Position numbers and translations under genes: made by a program | The notes under the pieces: model-generated | Database searches by the model: none | What the model saw: the letters and a program-made list of their open reading frames with translations, nothing else | Told to the model about the DNA's origin: nothing | From: Pristiophorus japonicus | Lineage: Eukaryota | Length of the DNA stretch: 64,000 bases | NCBI RefSeq assembly: GCF_044704955.1 | Contig: NC_091999.1 | Span: forward strand, 3,472,001 to 3,536,000 | Direction: 5' to 3' | In this document: piece by piece, positions 4,505 through 54,282 of the stretch | Position numbering within the stretch: the stretch's first letter is position 1 | Layout of the letters: each line of letters opens with the position of its first letter

Positions 4505-5550
4505 TGTGATCAGCATATCCCCTCAGTTCTCATATCATCCTTGTTGCAATGTATACACAGGTGAGTATGCTCACAAGTTTGTACAGCTGTTGAGTTGGGA
4601 GTGGCTTAGCCAGTCACGTGATGTTCGCAAGACTCAATAAAACCCCAGCCAGTTGGGTTTGGGGGATCTACGATGGGGCAGGTAGTTGTGAGCCTGGTGG
4701 ATGAACTGGGAATGTACTGCTCCTGGGCCCTGTCAAGGGGGCCATCAGCCGGTCAAGGCAGCGGGCGGTCGAGGGGGTCGTTCAGCCCGACTGCCTGCCT
4801 CTCTTCCGCGGTTACATCCGCGCCAGGGTGTCCCTGGAGATGGAGCACGCGGTGTCCACCGGTACGCTCGCGGCCTTCCGCCAGAGGTGGGCGCCGGAGG
4901 GACTGGAGTGCATAGTCACCCCCGGCAACCAAATTTTAATTTGATCATTTAAGTTTAAAGTTTAATTTGTTTCATTTGCCGGGTTTAGTGCCCCCCCTCC
5001 CTTTTCGCCAGGGGGCACTTGTATAATTTCTGTTTTTAGTGCCCTCAAAAAAACCCCAAGAAAAAAAAAAGGGGAAAAAAACATTATTTTGGAGTGTGAC
5101 CCCCCCCCCCGTTCAGTAGAGACACTGAAGAAGAGGGGACGAGTGGATCAGAATCACTGGTGTCAACTCTCCTCACAGGCCAACTGCTCCTTTAAACAAG
5201 ATTGCCAAGGTGTGGACTGTGGTACCTTTGAGGCCAAGCGTGTCAAACTGGAGCCCGTCATGGTGTGAAGTATCGGCTTGGGACTTTTTCTACAAATATA
5301 AATGCTTAATTGTAACTTTATATTTAAGTGTTTTACTTTCTGTGCAAGCTGGATTTGGAATCCAAAGTGCAACAAGTCTGGCTCTTTGTGTCTTTCCAGA
5401 CACATTTGTTTAAAGTGCACAACTAAAATAGTTGAACTGGTAATGTGTCGTGTGATTGTTAAACCTTTGCTAATAAATCAACTAGTTCTTAATAGCAATG
5501 TGCTGCTATCAATTCTTAAGCAAAGAACCCATGAAGCAAATACATTACAT
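4505..5550 (+). mobile_element. Probable solo LTR interrupted by the 4716-5432 insertion
   Basis: TG start, TTACA end, AATAAA motifs, and a 14-bp near-duplicate TGAACTGG(G/T)AATGT either side of the insert. Confidence 0.45.
4716..5080 (+). mobile_element. Tx1-clade LINE 3' end (ORF2 C-terminus plus A-rich UTR)
   Basis: AISRSRQRAVEGVVQPDCLPLFRGYIRARVSLEMEHAVSTGTLAAFRQRWAPEGLECIVTPGNQILI* (4741-4944), followed by A tracts. Confidence 0.7.
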
Positions 5551-5619: not shown

Positions 5620-6208
5620 CATCATCATCATCACAGGCAGTCCCTCGGAATCGAGGAAGACTTGCTTCCACTCTAAAAGTGAGTTCTCAGGTGACTGAAC
5701 AGTCCAATACAGGAATTACAGTCCCTGTCACAGGTGGGACAGACAGTGGTTGAGGGAAGGGGAGGGTGGGACTGGTTTGCCGCATGCTCCTTCCGCTGCC
5801 TGCGTTTGCTTTCTGCGCGCTCTCGGCGACGAGACTCGAGGTGCTCAGCGCCCTCCCGGATGCTCTTCCTCCACTTAGGGGCGGACTGGTCTTTGACCAG
5901 GGACTCCCAGGTGTCGTTGGGGATGTTGCACTTTATCAGGGAGGCTTTGAGGGTGCCCTTGTAAAGTTTCCTCTGCCCACCTTGGACTCGCTTGCTGTGT
6001 AGGAGTTCCGAGTAGAGCGCTTGCTTTGGGAGTCTTGTGTCGGGCATGTGAACGACGTGGCCCGCCCAACGGAGCTGGTCGAGTGTGGTCAGTGCTTCGA
6101 TGCTGGGGATGTTGGCCTGGTCGAGGACGCTAACATTGGTGCGTCTGTCCTCCCAGGGGATTTGCAGGATCTTGTGGCGACATCGTTGGTGGTATTTCTC
6201 CAGCTGCT
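5620..6208 (-). mobile_element. RTE-clade LINE 3' fragment
   Basis: QLRWAGHV..RLPKQALYSEL..CPTCDRDC..GLFSHLRTH zinc finger; (ATG)n tail. Confidence 0.9.
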
Positions 6209-6597: not shown

Positions 6598-6990
6598 TAT
6601 CATCATAGGCAGTCCCTCGTATCGAGGATGACTTGCTTCCACGCCAAAAAGGGATGAGTTCCTCGGTGTTTCAATGAAGGACCTAATATTCCAGGATCCC
6701 GAACTACATGTTGAAGGGTGGAAGATGCCTGTGCGTGGACTTTTTTAACGTGTGGTGGCCATTGCACACCAGCCACCGCACGGGCTTGACAGAGCTAGGT
6801 CTTGGTCCAGTGGCAAGGGTTAACCAGGACGATTGGAGACCTGCTCTGCTGCACGGACCTAGTGCGCGCACATATCGCAGTGTGGGCCCTGATCACATCC
6901 CTCTACGAACTCTCGCCGCTCCTCCGCCCCGACCTCGCCTCTCCTGCTGTACCTGCCCGCACTGCAATCAACGACCTGTATCTTGGCGAC
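6598..6990 (-). mobile_element. Non-autonomous element with RTE-type tail (related copies about 8920-9245, 25525-26010, 30840-31580)
   Basis: Shares the ggaagcaagtcatcctcga..agggactgcctatgatg tail with RTE and has a non-coding body repeated in the window. Confidence 0.7.
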
Positions 6991-7465
6991 GTTATAATTA
7001 GTAGGTAAAGTATTCTGCATGGCTACATGGCATCGACAGGCAGGCTGAAAATAGTACCACGGTTCAGGTCATGATTATACCTCAGTGACCTGGTCTCCTT
7101 CGGCTCCGGGGTAGATTCAAGCCTCTAGCTCACTCACTGCCACCAGTTCTGTTCCGGGTGGAGTTTGGATTTGCCGAACCCGTTTGGGGAGCTGATTTGA
7201 TTTTACGGGTGGAATGCATTTGCGGGGTCGCTGGGTCAGTTTGGGAAAATTCCATCAGCTCGGGGATTGCTGCATCAATTTACAGTCATTGGGTCAGCTT
7301 AGGATTGCTGGGTCAGTTTGAAATGGCTGGGTCCGTTTGTGATTTATCGGTCATTTCGCAGGCATTGGATCGGATAGGTTATGAAGGATTAATGGGCTGA
7401 AATTCGAAACGGGTCGTACCGACTGCTTTTGTTGTGTTTTCACCGCTGCTGTGGATGAAAGCTGG

Positions 7466-7990
7466 AAGGACCAATGTTAGCGTCCTCGTCCAGACCAACA
7501 TCTCCAGCATTGATGCACTGACCACACTTGATCAGCTCCGATGGGCAGGCCACGTAGTTCGCATGCCAGACACGAGACTCCCAAGGCAAGCGCTCTACTC
7601 GGAACTCGTCCACGGCAAGCGAGCCCCAGGTGGGCAGAGAAATCGTTTCAAGGACACCCTCAAAGCCCTCCCTGATAAAGTGCAACATCCCCACCGACAC
7701 CTGGGAGTCCCTGGCCCAAAGACCAGTCCGCCCCTAAGTGGAGGAAGTGCATCCGGGAGGGCGCTGAGCACCTCGAGTCTCGTCGCCGAGAGCATGCAGA
7801 AAGCAAGCGCAGGCAGCGGAAGGAGCGTGCGGCAAACCAGTCCCACCCTCCCCTTCCCTCAACCACCTTCTGTCCCACCTGTGACAGGGACTGTGGTTCT
7901 CGTATTGGACTGTTCGGTCACCTAAGAACTCATGCTAAGAGTGGAAGCAAGTCTTCCTCGATTCCGAGGGACTGCCTATGATGATGATGG
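7466..7990 (+). mobile_element. RTE LINE 3' fragment
   Basis: Same family as 5620-6208; ends gggactgcctatgatgatgatg. Confidence 0.9.
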
Positions 7991-8722: not shown

Positions 8723-9899
8723 ACTAGCACTTCTGCAAATTCCTCACCAACTTATTTTAATATCCTGGTGGTGGAAACCATCAGGTCCTGGTGATTTATC
8801 TCTCTTAAGTCCCACTATTTTCTCCACCACCATTTTGTTACTAATATTGAATCCAGTAAGTTCATCCCCTTGATTTACTTTGAGTTTCTCTTCTATCAAT
8901 GGTATTTTATCCTCTTCTTCTAGTATAGTATTAGGCAGTCCCTCGTATTTCATCCTCTTCTTCTAGTATAGTATTAGGCAGTCCCTCGTATTTCATCCTC
9001 TTTTTCTAGTATAGTATTAGACAGTCCCTCGCTTCCACACCAAAAAAAACAATTCTCAGATGTTTCCATGAGGGACCTGACATTCCGGATCCCGAACTAC
9101 ATGTTGAAGGGTGGAAGATGCCTGTGTGTGGATTTTTTTAACGTGTGGTGGCAACTCAAGAGAGCTAGGTCTTGGTTCAGTAGCAAGGATTAACCAATGC
9201 GACTGGAGACCTGCTCTGCTGCACGGACCTAGTGCGCACACATATCCCTCAACAACTCTCTTACTGTTAATATATTGAGACTTTTAAAAAAAACTTATTA
9301 GTATTTGCATTATTTGCAAGGTTTTTTTTGTATTTTGTTTTTTGCAGCTTCGAGATTAGAAGAAATAGAATGAGAGGTGATCTCACTGAAATGTGTAAAA
9401 TTCTTCGAATGCCTGACAGAATTGATGCTGTGAGGTGGCTTACGCTGGGTGGAGAGTATCGCACTAGGGTTCGCAGTCTCAAGGTAAGGGGTCGGCCATT
9501 TAGGACAGAGATGAGGAGAAATTTCTTACTCAAATGGTTGTGAATCTGAGGAATTCTCTGCCCCAGACGGCTGTGGTTGCTCAGTCGTTGAGTATATTCA
9601 AGATGCAGATCGACAGATCTCTGGACTCCAAAGGAATCACGGGATATGGGGAACAGGCAGGAAAGTGGAGTTGAGGTAAAAGATCAGCCGTGATCTCATT
9701 GAATGGCGGAGCAGGCTCGAGGGGCCGAATGGCCCGCTCCTGCTCACATTTCGTAAGTCCTCCTGCAGCTCTTAATATTTCTTTTGTGTTCCTTTCTGGT
9801 TTTCTATATTTCTTCCAGTCCTCTGGATTACCACTTTTCTTGGCATTTATGCAATTCACTTCCTATAGCATCATGCTGCATCAAACCTCATCTCCTGAC

Positions 9900-15164: not shown

Positions 15165-15890
15165 CATCATCCTGATCATAGGCAGTCCCTCGGAATCGAG
15201 GAAGACTTGCTTCCACTCTAAAAGTGAGTTCTCAGGTGGCTGAACAGTCCAATACGGGAACCACAGTCTCTGTCACAGGTGGGACAGACAGTGGTTGAGG
15301 GAAAGGGTGGGTGGGGAGTCTGGTTTGCTGCACGCTCCTTCCGCTGCCTGCGCTTGCTTTCTGCGCGCTCTCGGCGACGAGACTCGAGGTGCTCAGAGCC
15401 CTCCCGGATGCACTTCCTCCACTTAGGGGCGGTCTGCTCTTTGGGCCGGGGATTCCCAGGTGCCTATGGGGATGTTGCATTTTATCAGGGAGGCTTTGAG
15501 GGTGGTCCTTGTAACGTTTCCTCTGCCCACCTTCAATCGCCTGAGGAAGAGAGAGTGTTTGAAGACGAGGACTTCAAATCTGGCACCAAGCTTATGGTCT
15601 ACAGGGCAGTAATGATACCCATCCTCCTATATGGCTCAGAGACGTGGAACATATACAGTAGGACACCTCAAATCACTGGAGAAATACCACCAACACTGCC
15701 TCCACCAGATCCTGCAAATCCACTGGGAGGACAGATGCACCAACGTCACTGTTCTCGCTCAGGCCAACATCCCCAGTATGGAAGCACTGACCACACTCGG
15801 CCAGCTCCGCTGGACGGGCCACATCGTCCTCATGGCCAACACGAGACTCCCAAAGCAAGCGCTCTACTCGGAACTCCTCCACGGCAAGCG
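15165..15890 (-). mobile_element. RTE LINE with 5' inversion
   Basis: 15165-15530 is the antisense 3' part; about 15535-15890 is the sense upstream part, ending at cacggcaagcga. Confidence 0.8.
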
Positions 15891-22075: not shown

Positions 22076-22353
22076 CACTGACCTATTTGACACTGAGTGT
22101 AAGGTGCTCATCGACACCGGTGATTTCCCCCAAGTCCCTCGGCTGAGGGAGAGGGTCGGACAGGAGGACGGATTTGCCGGGGTGGGGGTGGGGGTGGGGG
22201 GGGGAAAGGCATTGGAAGCCAGGCTGACACACTCTGAACCGTAGCGTCCTGGTTACACCGGGTCACCGGGTCACTGTGCTCCACGTGAAATCGCCCGCTC
22301 CCACCTCTAACCCAAGCTCTCTCTCTCTCTTTCTCTCTCTCCCTCTTGGGCAG

Positions 22354-22498
22354 GGCAAGTGTCGAGTACAATCAGGAGTCGATGAAGAGCGCGCTGGAGA
22401 AGCTGAAGGGCATCGAGGCGGACATGGGCGGGACCGAGATCCTCCAGCCCCTCACCGCCATTTACAGCAGGCCGTGTAAACCTGGGCACCTGCGGCAG
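22354..22498 (+). CDS. VWA5A: Single VWA5A-like internal exon (vWA domain), apparently orphan
   Basis: Polypyrimidine/CAG acceptor, ASVEYNQESMKSALEKLKGIEADMGGTEILQPLTAIYSRPCKPGHLRQ, donor GTAACG. Matches the recalled VWA5A ADLGGTEILxPL...PGHPxQ segment. Neighbouring exons were not found. Confidence 0.8.
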
Positions 22499-22649
22499 GT
22501 AACGGCTCAGGTGGAATGTGTGCCGGGAGGTAACCGCTGTAAGATTAGGGTCACAGGTCACACACACATACCCAAAGGGTCTTGGGAGTTTTATAAGGCA
22601 TTTTATTAAGGGAGCGGTAGTTCAGATACAGTCAATCACAACACACAAT

Positions 22650-24930: not shown

Positions 24931-26009
24931 TGTAACCGATCGGCCCCTCTTTCCCCCCCCCCCCTTCCCCCCCCCCGCTGAGTGTCGTCCCCAACCCCCG
25001 GGGTCCAGCTGCCTCTACTTCGACCCCCACTATGTCCCGACGAGATTGCCCCCTCTCTGGGCTCGCCTCCAGCTGTTGGAAGGCGGTTTGAATCCCACTC
25101 GAAGGGCTGCCATCCCCTGGGAAACATGTTCACCCGTACAGGGTCTGAACCACCCCACCCCAAAACCCTCACATCGACCGGCCACAGCCCTGTCCCGACT
25201 GACGGTCAGAGGCGGGAGCCCCTCGGTCCCCATGGGGGGGGGGGGGTGGGGCGTGATTGACTGCTGAGGGAGCCCCACTCCGAGCTGGTGATGACTGCAG
25301 GTATTCAACTGCAATACGGCGGGGGAGCGGAGGGGGGGGGGGGCGGAATTGGACCCTGGAATAAAAGATGGGGGTCCCTTGAAGCTTCCCGCAAGGAAGA
25401 GCGAAGTGTTGGACATTTTCACCGTGGGGGAATCTATCTGCTACCTGTCTGTGGATGTTGCCTTCTGTCACCTGGAGTACTGCGTACAGTTTTGGTCTCC
25501 GTATTTAAGGAGGGATCATCATATCATCATCATAGGCAGTCCCTCGTGTCGAGGATGACTTGTTTCCACGCCAAAAAGGGATGAGTTCCTAGGTGTTTCA
25601 ATGAAGGGTGGACCACATGTTGAAGGGTGGAAGATGCCTGTGGGTGGATTTGTTTAACGTGGGGTGACCGTTGCACACCAGCCACCACACGGGGCTTGAC
25701 AGAGCGAGGTCTTGGTCCAGGGGCAAGGGTTAACCAGTTCGACTGGAGATCTGCTCTGCTGCACGGACCCACTGCGTACACACATATCGCAGTGTGGGCT
25801 GGGCCCATGCTGCCCCTGGGCCCTCGCCCCTTCTGGGCCCTAGACTCACGTCTCTCCTGGGCCCCGGTCACTTCCCCTTACAAACACTCGCCGCTCCTTC
25901 CCCCCTCCTGCTGTGCCTGCTCGCACTGTAACCAGCGAGCTGGCTTCCCAGCCATCGCCCTCCTGTAGTGGTATCCCACCGCACACTGTTCCCTCTGATG
26001 GCCCCGGCC

Positions 26010-26530
26010 TGCTAAGGAGGGATATACTTGCATTGAAGGCTGTCACGAGGTTGATTCCAGAGGTGAGGGGGTTGACTTTATGAAGGTAGGTTGAGTAGGT
26101 TGGGCCTATACACATTGGAGTTCAGAAGAATAAGAGGTGATCTTATTGAAACTTATAAGATAATGAGGGGGCTCGACAAGGTGGATGCAGAGAGGATGTT
26201 TCCACTGATGGGGGAGACTAGAACTAGGGGGCATGATCTTAGAATAAGGGGCCGCCCATTTAAAACTGAGATGAGGAGGAATTTCTTCTCTCAGAGGTTT
26301 GTAAATCTGTGGAATTCTCTGCCCCAGAGAGCTGTGGAGGCTGGGTCATTGAATATATTTAAGGTGGAGATAGACAGATTTTTGAGCGATAAGGGAGTGA
26401 AGGGATATGGGGAGCGGGCGGGGAAGTGGAGCTGAGTCCATGATCAGATCAGCCATAATCTTATTGAATGGCGGAGCAGGCTCGAGGGGCCGAATGGCCG
26501 ACTCCTGCTCCTATTTCTAACGTTCTGATG
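26010..26530 (+). mobile_element. CR1 LINE 3' end
   Basis: ORF 26091-26435 plus tail. Confidence 0.9.
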
Positions 26531-30745: not shown

Positions 30746-31119
30746 CAAATTGGCTGCTGCCTCTACTAGTTAACGACAGTGACTATACAAAATCCTCCAT
30801 TTAAAGCTCCTGAGGCGGTGATCGTCACAGGCGGGCCCTCGAACCAGGATGACTTGCTTCCACATGTGTTCACAGATATTTCGATGAAGGACCCGATGTT
30901 CCAGCCCTGAACTCCAGTTGAGGGGGTGGAAGATGCCTGTGCGTGGACTTTTTAAAATCAGCCACCACACGGGCGCGACAGAGCTCGGCCTTTATCCAGT
31001 GGCAACGGTTGAACCAGGACAACTGGAGACCGGCCCTGCTGCACGGACCCAGTGCGCACACATATCGCACAGTGTGGGCTGGGCCCTTGCTGCCCCTGGG
31101 CCCTCGGCTCTTCAAGGCC

Positions 31120-31453
31120 AATCTTTCCAATTCTTTGTCAAATCACAAACGCCAGAGGTCACCTTGCACACATCAAGGATCACTCTGCGCCAATGCTCTT
31201 AGCCAAAAGGCCGAGAGCCACTGCACCGTTCCTGGAAGTACTGCAATACCAGGTTCGTGCCATGGAGGTGGATGGGTCAGGCCCCCCACACACCTCCGTG
31301 GAGGTGGATGGGTCAATCCACCCCACCCACCTCCTATTTCCAAAAAGCATAGGAGAACCACCTTCCTGATCCAGGGAGAACCACTTTGGGGTCATGGTTA
31401 CTCCCCTGTCAGGTCAGTTACGCATGATCTTAGCCAAAAGGCCGAGAAGCGAT
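31120..31453 (-). mobile_element. U2/U1 snRNA-chimeric retroposon (SINEU-like) with 11-bp TSD
   Basis: Starts at U2 nt 1 (ATCGCTTCTCGGCCTTTTGGCTAAGATCA). It continues with a U1-like 5' part, U2 Sm-site and 3' stem-loop parts, a second U2 5' copy and a unique tail. TSD TCTTCAAGGCC at 31109-31119 and 31454-31464. Confidence 0.88.
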
Positions 31454-32639
31454 TCTTCAAGGCCCCCGTACCCTCATTCGCCGCACCTTCACCCACAGTG
31501 TTCCGGGGCCCAGCGCTCCAGCTCTATTTATAGCCCCGACCTGCCGTGGTGTTCTCACACAGGTCGGGGCGGCCCACTCAAACTAAGTGACAACTGAAAC
31601 ACACCAGTAAGTTGACATCAAAAAGATGTCCTGAGTAACAAGGAACAACGCATTTTAATAATGTTTATTAAAAGTAGGTTCACACAGCTACAGCAAGCAA
31701 TTTTAAATGGTGCATTCATACTGTGCATCTCATTACTGCAGAGTCGGTTCCCTGGTATAATTACAACGTGAGTTTGGAATTTTTTGCTGGGTGTGAGACA
31801 ATCTGCAGGAAATAGTCTTGTGCTACTGCAGCTTCACAACCAGCTTGATGCAATATTTTTTAAAATTTAAGTTTGAAACAAATTGGGGCAGTCAGTCCAT
31901 TGAAAGACACTGCTGAAATACAAGTTCTTTCTTTCGATCGGTGCAGTCAGTCAGGTGAAGGATCTATCAATGAGGATATGGGAAGGCAACATTCAATCCC
32001 AGCAGGAAGCAGGAATAGAGCTAGAAACATAGAAAATAGGAGCAGGAGTCGGCCATTCGGCCCCTCGAGCCTGCACCGGCATTTAATACGATCATGGCTG
32101 ATCTTCGACCTCAACTCCACTTTCCCGCTCGAGGGGGAGTAACTGGTTCTCCGCAGGGAACAAGGATAGAGTTCGAGGTGGGGGGGGGGGGGGTAAATGG
32201 GTCCCAGCAGGGAACAGGAATAGAACATGAGCAATAGGTGCAGGTGCAGGCCATTCGGCCCCTCGAGCCTGCTCCGCCATTTAATACGATCATGGCTGAT
32301 CTTCGACCTCAACTCCACTTTCCCGCACTATCCCCATATCCCTTCATTACCTTAACGGCCAAAAATCTATCCATCTCGGTCTTGAATATATTCAAAGACT
32401 TGAGCCTCCACAGCCCTCTGGGGCAGAGAATTCCAAAGAAGCACAACTCTGAGTGAAGGCATTTCTCCTCATCTCAGTCCTAAATAGCTGACCTCTTATC
32501 CTAAGACTGTGACCCCTCCAGACTCCAGAGAATATAGGCCCATTCTACTCAATAAAGCTGTGGTTATGTTTGTGGGGGCGGGGGGGGGGGTCGGGAAGGA
32601 AGCACAAAGGGAAATGGGTGTGGGTCTGGGCCTGTGATG

Positions 32640-41585: not shown

Positions 41586-41982
41586 TTTCCCTTTTAATTT
41601 ATTTAAGGGGAGGGAGTGGGGTCCGGGAGAGAGTCTCCCCTCGCTCACTGACAGAGTATTTCCCTTTTAATTTATTTAAGGGGGCGATACAGGCTGGGTG
41701 TGGGGTCCGGAGTGAGTCATCTTACCCACTGCCAGAGTATTTCCCTTTTAATTTATTTAAGGGGGCGACACAGACTGGGTGTGGGGTCCGTAGAGTGAGT
41801 CGTCATACCCACTGACAGAGTATTTCCCTTTTAATTTATTTAAGGGGGCGACACAGACTGGGTGTGGGGTCCGTAGAGTGAGTCGTCATACCCACTGACA
41901 GAGTATTTCCCTTTTAATTTATTTAAGGGGGGCGACACAGACTGGGTGTGGGGTCCGTAGAGTGAGTCCCCTCGCCCACTGA
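41586..41982 (+). repeat. About 83-bp tandem repeat (5 copies) filling the L-V intron
   Basis: tttcccttttaatttatttaagggg recurs at about 41587, 41659, 41740, 41823 and 41906. Confidence 0.9.
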
Positions 41983-42002
41983 CCGGTGTCTCTCTTTTCC
42001 AG

Positions 42003-42321
42003 GTGTTTTGGCCGACCCCCGTGTCACTCAGGAGCCCCTCGCTGGGCCGGTCACCGCGGGAGAGACGGTTAAACTGAAGTGCAACCTGCTCGGAGCCAGC
42101 TCCGGCACCTATGGCATCAGCTGGGTACGGCAGTCACCGGGGAGCACACCCCAGGGGGTTTTGTACTACAGCACCGGCAGGAGCATCTACCGTGCCCCGG
42201 GTATCACCGACCGCTTCACCCCCTCGGCCCAGGACTCCAGTTTCACCTACCACCTGACCATCAGCGCTCTGCAGGCCGAGGACTCGGCCATTTACTACTG
42301 CATGGTCAGGGTGAGCGGTCC
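42003..42321 (+). CDS. Ig light chain V segment, germline and unrearranged; most like shark sigma-2 (sigma-cart/type I/NS5) V by recollection
   Basis: DPRVTQEPLAGPVTAGETVKLKC...ISWVRQSPG...DRF...LTISALQAEDSAIYYCMVRVSG. Both canonical Cys, the Trp and DxAxYYC are intact. Pyrimidine-rich acceptor upstream and an RSS immediately after. Confidence 0.95.
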
Positions 42322-42349
42322 CACAGTGACACACAGCGTGACACAAACT
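42322..42349 (+). other. 12-RSS of V
   Basis: Heptamer CACAGTG 42322-42328, 12-bp spacer ACACACAGCGTG, nonamer ACACAAACT 42341-42349 (7/9 match to ACAAAAACC). Confidence 0.93.
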
Positions 42350-42464
42350 TCCTCTGGGGCCCCGAAATGCTTCGCAGTGCAGCAGCCTCAGCCTTGCCCG
42401 CCTCCTTATCGTCCTACGGAGGTCCACCACAGGGCAAGGAGAACTGGCATCGTTTTGCCTCCTT

Positions 42465-53610: not shown

Positions 53611-53938
53611 GAGGGGCGGGGGGGGGGGGGGGGGGGGGGGTAAAAGGGGCAGGGGGTTGCATCTCCTGCGCTTGCCCGGGAAGGATTATGTGGCCGGAAG
53701 CTCATTTCGGGGCCGCGAACCAAGGTTGCGAACGGTCTGGTTCAGCCTCAGACAGGAGTTGGGGGCGAGGGATGGGGGTTGGTGGCTCGGGAACGCAGTT
53801 TGTGGCAGGGGGGGGGGAGGGTGGGGGGGTGAGGGGGGGAGAAGCGGTGGTGAGGTGGAGCTGGGGGTAAACGTGGAATATGTACATACGTTGTCTAACC
53901 CGTCTCTCGTTCCTTCCCCCCCCCCCCCCTCTCCGCAG

Positions 53939-54282
53939 GTAGCTCGGCCCGGCCCCCTTTGGTCTCCGTCTTCGCCCCCTCCCGAGAGGAACTGGACTCC
54001 CCCTCCCAGGACGCGGCCACCCTCAGCTGCCTGGTGAGCGGCTTCACCCCGGCCTTGGTGGATGTGCAGTGGCTGGCAGACGGCGTCGAGGTGCACGAGG
54101 GCGCCAGCCGTAGCCCGGTGGCGCTGGAGGCGGGATCGGGATCGACCCACCGCCTGGTCAGCTACCTGCGCCTGACCGCCGCCGACTGGAAGGCAGGGAG
54201 GAGGTACGCCTGCCGGGTCCGGCACCAGGCGCAGGACCAGCCCATCGAGCTGAGCCTGAGCAGCCAGGCCTGCGGCCTGTAA
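53939..54282 (+). CDS. Ig light chain constant (C1-set) exon
   Basis: Acceptor ctccgcAG, phase 1. SSARPPLVSVFAPSREEL...ATLSCLVSGFTP...VQW...SYLRL...W...YACRVRH...SSQACGL*. The near-terminal Cys suits an L-H disulfide, and the stop is inside the exon (no TM segment). Confidence 0.95.

Follow-up and report, generated by a model that had tools for sequence, protein, structure and literature searches.

The closest described system to the insert reported here is SINEU of crocodilians, in which pieces of U1 and U2 were recurrently added at the 5′ end and a partial duplication is seen within the U1 pieces (Kojima 2015; PMC4494074). For instance, SINEU-2 is a fusion of a 5′ U1 part and a 3′ U2 part, and its 5′ extensions, whose ends differ by as much as 22 nt, arose many times independently and were attributed to template switching. 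In addition, the SINEU elements have target site duplications (TSDs) of about 10 bp and were mobilized by Tx1-Mar. All SINEU groups are poly(A)-tailed, and they have been found in crocodilians only. Upstream or flanking promoters were proposed for their transcription, and this question was left open (PMC4494074).

Meanwhile, U2 also meets foreign sequence at Keno (Tx1 clade) and Utopia. U2 resumes at nt 39 behind Utopia, Keno has the same 3′ flank, and the 5′ junctions vary (PMC4640811). In mammals, 3′-truncated snRNA copies end in single-stranded segments without gene targeting (PMC4476161; PMC5322556). For cartilaginous fish, no snRNA-headed SINE was found in the literature, most subscription papers and Repbase lying outside the search, and there was none in the accessible parts of PMC5786205, PMC7245038, PMC11838501, and PMC2912911.

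Here, we describe an insert composed of U2 and U1 pieces in a 64-kb stretch of shark DNA (the window; positions are counted from its first letter). We propose, with a probability of about 0.55, that this insert is a copy of a SINEU-like retroposon that lengthened its head through template jumps, depended on an L1/Tx1-type LINE for mobility in trans, and was transcribed from a flanking promoter.

Modules, ends, and genomic context of the insert

The window consists of vertebrate DNA rich in repeats and contains immunoglobulin V and C1 exons. The insert, its modules, and its flanks are as follows:

31120-31453, minus strand: complete retroposed element of 334 bp, starting at U2 nt 1 and ending with the tail, without poly(A), its ends set by an exact TSD
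31454-31464, unstranded: TSD copy on the 5′ side of the element, TCTTCAAGGCC on the plus strand
31109-31119, unstranded: TSD copy on the 3′ side of the element, host-derived
31425-31453, minus strand: outer U2 5′ piece, U2 nt 1-29 by Rfam alignment, stem I intact
31419-31424, minus strand: junction after the outer U2 piece, differing at two positions from U2 nt 30-35, with which it aligns; the region that pairs with the branch point is lost
31371-31420, minus strand: U1 5′ piece, about nt 1-50, from profile match and fold
31350-31371, minus strand: partial second copy of the loop and 3′ stem strand of U1, having a 10-nt exact core in common with the U1 piece
31221-31349, minus strand: 3′ half of U2, from the region of the Sm site as far as the natural end of the RNA, with stem III twice and stem IV kept
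31193-31219, minus strand: inner U2 5′ piece, core 31197-31216 equal to U2 7-26, flank changes lengthening the hairpin
31120-31196, minus strand: 77-nt tail, origin not traced in Rfam or among the LINE ends of the window, with a predicted stem at 31162-31178 and no poly(A)
31465-31560, minus strand: 5′ part of the host repeat, which resumes past the insert, with a TATA-like motif and a hairpin
30821-31119, minus strand: 3′ part of the host repeat, non-coding and terminated by an RTE-like LINE 3′ tail, in the same orientation as the insert

Both ends of the element are known because an exact 11-bp TSD, absent from the preliminary description, brackets it. When 63,098 window positions were compared, the TSD pair was the sole exact 11-mer repeated at this spacing. 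From 5′ to 3′, the modules are a U2 5′ piece, a partly duplicated U1 5′ piece, the U2 3′ half with stem III doubled, a second U2 5′ piece, and the tail.

The Rfam U2 match covers 31216-31453 (61.7 bits, E = 9e-10), and position 31453 corresponds to position 1 of the U2 model. The two U2 5′ pieces of the preliminary description are both present on the minus strand, and the inner one is indeed U2 7-26. However, the outer piece, which had been called undiverged to about nt 35, keeps its close match only to nt 29: it agrees with the Rfam consensus at 28 of 29 nt, the lone difference being a weak consensus position, and then departs from it at nt 30 and 32, both well conserved. For the U1 piece, the E value was 6e-4 in a 91-nt search and only 0.075 in the search of the whole window. 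All stem I pairs of this piece but one are kept, with one change in the 5′-splice-site arm and several in the loop. The two copies of U2 stem III lie at about 31297-31334 and 31259-31296 (32 matching columns), and the A preceding the U-run of the Sm site has been replaced.

The inner modules had been described as decayed. This is true of the U1 and U2 3′ modules, which have diverged in sequence and retained their stems, but not of the inner U2 core, which is identical to the outer one at 20 of 20 positions (nt 7-26) and at 23 of 24 across a longer stretch. In addition, the fold of the whole element is strong (z = −3.97; 0 of 100 shuffles as good), as expected because of its snRNA origin. One copy by itself cannot prove selection on the stems.

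Two further observations concern the junctions. The sequences after the outer (31408-31427) and inner (31175-31196) U2 cores are alike, and both leave U2 at nt 30 and 32, a likeness not significant against shuffles that hints that the outer head was derived from the element's own lineage. The U1/U2 junction at 31350-31351 (minus strand) reads TA, and a similar junction TA was noted for SINEU-2A and SINEU-2B (PMC4494074); this may be a chance agreement. Meanwhile, on the plus strand, the strand of the nearby exons, the antisense U1 arm at 31405-31425 yields the splice-donor-like CAG/GTCAGT, which, judged by its sequence, might serve as a cryptic donor were the insert located in an intron.

The insert resembles SINEU-1 and SINEU-2 in that it is shorter than 500 bp and non-coding, has a TSD near 10 bp, carries U1/U2 heads added at the 5′ side with a partial U1 duplication, contains internal oligo-T and no internal Pol III promoter, and lies in another repeat. 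Furthermore, it shares the fusion of 5′ U1 with 3′ U2 with SINEU-2, and the short U2 5′ piece followed by a unique 3′ part with SINEU-1J. It should be noted that this likeness is one of architecture as described in PMC4494074. However, unlike crocodilian SINEU, the insert has no A-run between its last base and the TSD, and it may represent the tailless form of a longer element. It also differs from SINEU in its shark host, in its host repeat, which is RTE-tailed and not Mariner-N4_AMi, and in the joining of a SINEU-2-like and a SINEU-1J-like unit in one element, known here from one copy. We class the element as a SINEU-like variant and not as a SINEU member, because the poly(A) tail is missing and one copy was seen.

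The insertion site is inside an RTE-tailed repeat and outside any U2 gene. The 3′ part of this repeat shows 75-77% identity with copies at 6599-6887, 9053-9246, and 25625-25839 of the window, and its tail is also found at the LINE ends 5627-5671, 7941-7985, and 15176-15216. The protein relatives of the LINEs carrying this tail are endonuclease-RT proteins of ~1,050 aa, and we take their clade to be RTE. On the other side of the insert, 31465-31560 resembles the host copy near 25835-26030 (2 of 300 shuffles as good), and its similarity to the host copy near 6880-7060 is not significant (136 of 300). The 20-nt target at the insertion site differs from the host copy at 25820 by 4 mismatches; it is GC-rich, unlike the TTTT/AA site of L1. 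Three homologous host copies elsewhere in the window are without the insert. Within the 5′ part of the repeat, the window positions 31520-31575 (minus strand) hold a strong hairpin (−29 kcal/mol) and then the TATA-like motif, which starts at 31532, 79 nt upstream of the element. This arrangement is possibly an RTE-type leader or promoter.

A more specific form of the SINEU-like explanation follows from this context, namely that a target-specific Tx1 family aims at the RTE-tailed repeat and that the element is co-transcribed from the promoter of its host. The insert lies in sense inside the repeat, the TATA-like motif is upstream in the host 5′ part, and there is a precedent in crocodilians, where SINEU-3 was aimed at Mariner-N4_AMi (PMC4494074). 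However, only one insertion is seen and the three other host copies are empty. In addition, transcripts started from a TATA box at −79 should be extended at the 5′ end, and this copy shows no such extension. We regard such targeting as quite improbable.

Elsewhere in the window, immunoglobulin V-set and C1-set exons lie at 41966-42400 and 53899-54279 (plus strand), about 12 kb apart, like a locus of an immunoglobulin light chain or a surrogate chain. The exon at 22289-22606, which had no Pfam match, presumably encodes a VWA5A-type protein by its look. Weak Rfam matches to miRNA and prion families in the window were dismissed as chance.

Tail, promoter signals, and the Tx1-type LINE fragment

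In the preliminary description, the tail was the part that a Tx1/Keno-type LINE would recognize, possibly through a CCTTG..CAAGG stem. The predicted fold does contain this stem, but when the tail was folded by itself, its stability was within the range of chance (z = −0.89; matched by 38 of 200 shuffles). The tail gave only the U2 core and two weak matches (E = 0.9 and 3) in Rfam. Furthermore, its alignment to the LINE ends of the window gave no match (best score 26; shuffled mean 24.5 and maximum 29 in 40 shuffles). By eye, the tail is suggestive of a decayed second U2-U1-U2 unit, that is, an old dimer. This resemblance was not significant: 64 to 865 of 1000 shuffles were as good across 12 settings, as were 172-220 of 2000 random genomic stretches.

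The Tx1-type fragment reported earlier for this window was confirmed:

4711-5082, plus strand: 5′-truncated end of a Tx1/L1-type LINE, with the ORF2 C-terminus at 4711-4941, a 3′ UTR, and an A-rich tail

The region 4711-4941 aligns over 75 aa, with 45% identity, to the end of an alligator protein of 1308 aa that contains endonuclease, RT, and zf-RVT. There were 57 relatives at E ≤ 0.001; among the 17 that were scanned, zf-RVT was found in 2, RVT_1 in 2, and zf-CCHC in 1, and 12 had no family at E ≤ 0.01. Pfam gave 0 families on the fragment itself. By its relatives and A-rich tail, the fragment appears to fit the ORF2 class with APE endonuclease, RT, and zf-RVT, and we take it to be Tx1 rather than L1. 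No TSD of 6 nt or more was found around it, and its surroundings (4590-4715 and 5300-5500) look LTR-like by eye and contain AATAAA motifs. The matches of the LINE fragments of the window include predicted proteins of sawshark and whale shark. In public shark and alligator gene models, exonized or whole LINE ORF2s stand under unrelated names; the 1308-aa ORF2, for example, is called "rhombotin-1".

A mobilizer of L1/Tx1 type is plausible, given the 11-bp TSD and the presence of a Tx1-type fragment. However, the tail is unlike the 3′ end of the local Tx1-type fragment (score 13; 463 of 500 shuffles as high). No U2 sequence flanks this copy, as would be expected of Keno. The fragment is neither Keno-like by target nor matched to the element as a partner. 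That the tail has no counterpart among the LINE ends of the window counts against the SINEU-like reading. In metagenomes, the one candidate Tx1 locus for a 3′-UTR comparison was rejected as a bacterial chance match, and none of 52 candidates in viral contigs was a Tx1 locus.

The element has no internal Pol III promoter, as the preliminary description had stated for the head. We found no exact A or B box, one match with 1 mismatch to each, and three oligo-T runs, at nt 15, 108, and 246 of the element, which would stop Pol III. Transcripts of the snRNA type carry no poly(A). For this copy, no octamer within 1 mismatch was found upstream and no PSE-like match near −60, the sole one being ~340 nt away with 3 mismatches. 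In the tail or downstream of it, the best 3′-box-like motif had 4 mismatches, the commonest value among 995 random stretches.

Proposed growth of the head

The successive 5′ additions of snRNA pieces suggested earlier are supported by our results. Under the SINEU-like explanation, the reverse transcriptase of a LINE would jump from the 5′ end of the element onto U2, U1, or element RNAs and produce a longer head. The jump points would be single-stranded, just past U2 stem I and past U1 stem I, and other joins would be made end to end, such as that of the U2 3′ end with the inner head. Earlier rounds of transposition would have preceded the present copy. With stems retained and splice-pairing motifs lost, the RNA would be folded yet inert in splicing. 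By analogy with crocodilian SINEU, an L1/Tx1-type LINE may move the element in trans, and a flanking or upstream promoter may transcribe it.

The addition of heads has also been explained in another way, by the promoter-hijack model of the preliminary description. This model places a source copy inside a true U2 gene, where it would be transcribed through the PSE/DSE and mobilized by a Keno/Tx1-type LINE, its heads coming from insertions into snRNA genes. Several features agree with it, including the start exactly at U2 nt 1 without extra 5′ bases, the lack of an internal Pol III promoter, the absence of poly(A) as in snRNA-type transcripts, and the presence of Tx1-type LINEs in the genome. 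The start at nt 1 counts against the SINEU-like reading to the extent that a U2 promoter predicts it equally. Like Keno and Utopia, moreover, the insert shows U2 5′ sequence and then foreign sequence near the branch-point region. The 5′ junctions of Utopia vary and can delete part of U2 (PMC4640811), so that a U2 piece ending before nt 38 does not by itself defeat the model.

However, the sequence follows U2 only to nt 29, or to nt 35 if two differences are allowed, and not to nt 38. A head fresh from a U2 gene should show no differences, and these two are at well-conserved positions. Keno and Utopia are inserted ahead of U2 nt 39, with the rest of U2 on their 3′ side (PMC4640811); in contrast, the insert is non-coding, its match ends at nt 29-35, and its flanks are the RTE-tailed repeat with no U2 remainder. 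Targets of three kinds (U2 near nt 30, U1 near nt 50, and the U2 3′ end) would also be required to supply the four modules, which is unlike an endonuclease with a single site. In addition, the tail is unrelated to the local Tx1 3′ end, the local Tx1 copy is not in U2, and the crocodilian SINEU-2 extensions were independent events and not products of one master (PMC4494074). On the whole, promoter hijacking is unlikely rather than refuted. The model amounts to a special case of the published proposal of flanking promoters, and little in the present copy speaks for it.

We prefer template jumps because one mechanism then covers both the U1 join and the join at the natural U2 3′ end, which would otherwise need other targets. 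The four different breakpoints of the four snRNA modules also speak for such jumps. On the other side, template switching in mammals involves mostly U6 and rarely U1 or U2 (PMC4476161), which counts against this reading.

Copy number and possible lineage of the element

No second copy of the element was found in the window, and an exact 20-nt pattern gave 0 matches in metagenome contigs, where sharks are hardly represented. In other samples of the same organism, 3 runs share 0.62-0.76 of 37 sampled words, which indicates presence only and perhaps this very locus. Another 4 runs, all of one sample, share 0.92-0.95 of the words, and they are possibly the assembly's own source and not independent. 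The remaining 17 of the 24 runs in the index, with a share of 0.08 or less, are no evidence either way. We infer the family from one copy. A lineage with earlier rounds is suggested because the inner modules are diverged and duplicated inside a perfect TSD and the head is near-perfect.

The insert could also be a one-off chimeric retrocopy or belong to a very small lineage. In that case, a LINE reverse transcriptase copied a short RNA and jumped through transcripts of snRNAs or snRNA pseudogenes, and the product does not propagate itself. The single copy seen in the window and the metagenome contigs fits this, as does the absence of poly(A), known from tailless retropseudogenes. Tailless or chimeric snRNA retropseudogenes of mammals are like the insert in having 5′-complete and 3′-truncated pieces, a TSD, and no poly(A) (PMC4476161; PMC5322556; PMC2912911; PMC11838501); snRNA chimeras, tripartite ones included, arise by template switching and do not go on to propagate. 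However, these mammalian copies have one gene-like module, whereas the insert combines four modules that have diverged to different extents with two internal duplications and a unique tail. Diverged and duplicated inner modules together with an exact TSD and a near-perfect head are also unlike a single event on real snRNAs, and the stems have survived many changes. We consider the one-off origin fairly unlikely.

Finally, we considered a tailless SINEU of sharks, independent of that of crocodilians, whose master would be a chimeric U2/U1 snRNA-like gene with a genuine snRNA promoter and snRNA 3′-end cutting, its stems kept and its splice-pairing motifs disabled. This proposal is doubtful. Such a promoter together with the snRNA 3′-end machinery would give both the exact start at nt 1 and the lack of poly(A). 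If it is true, a chimeric snRNA-like master would settle how SINEs with snRNA heads are transcribed, the question that Kojima left open. The presence in a shark of a young U2/U1 composite bounded by a TSD would represent a second vertebrate origin of such elements, with a strikingly parallel fusion of U1 5′ and U2 3′ parts. Furthermore, if the family was recently active, its promoter and its partner LINE would be traceable from the flanks of its copies.
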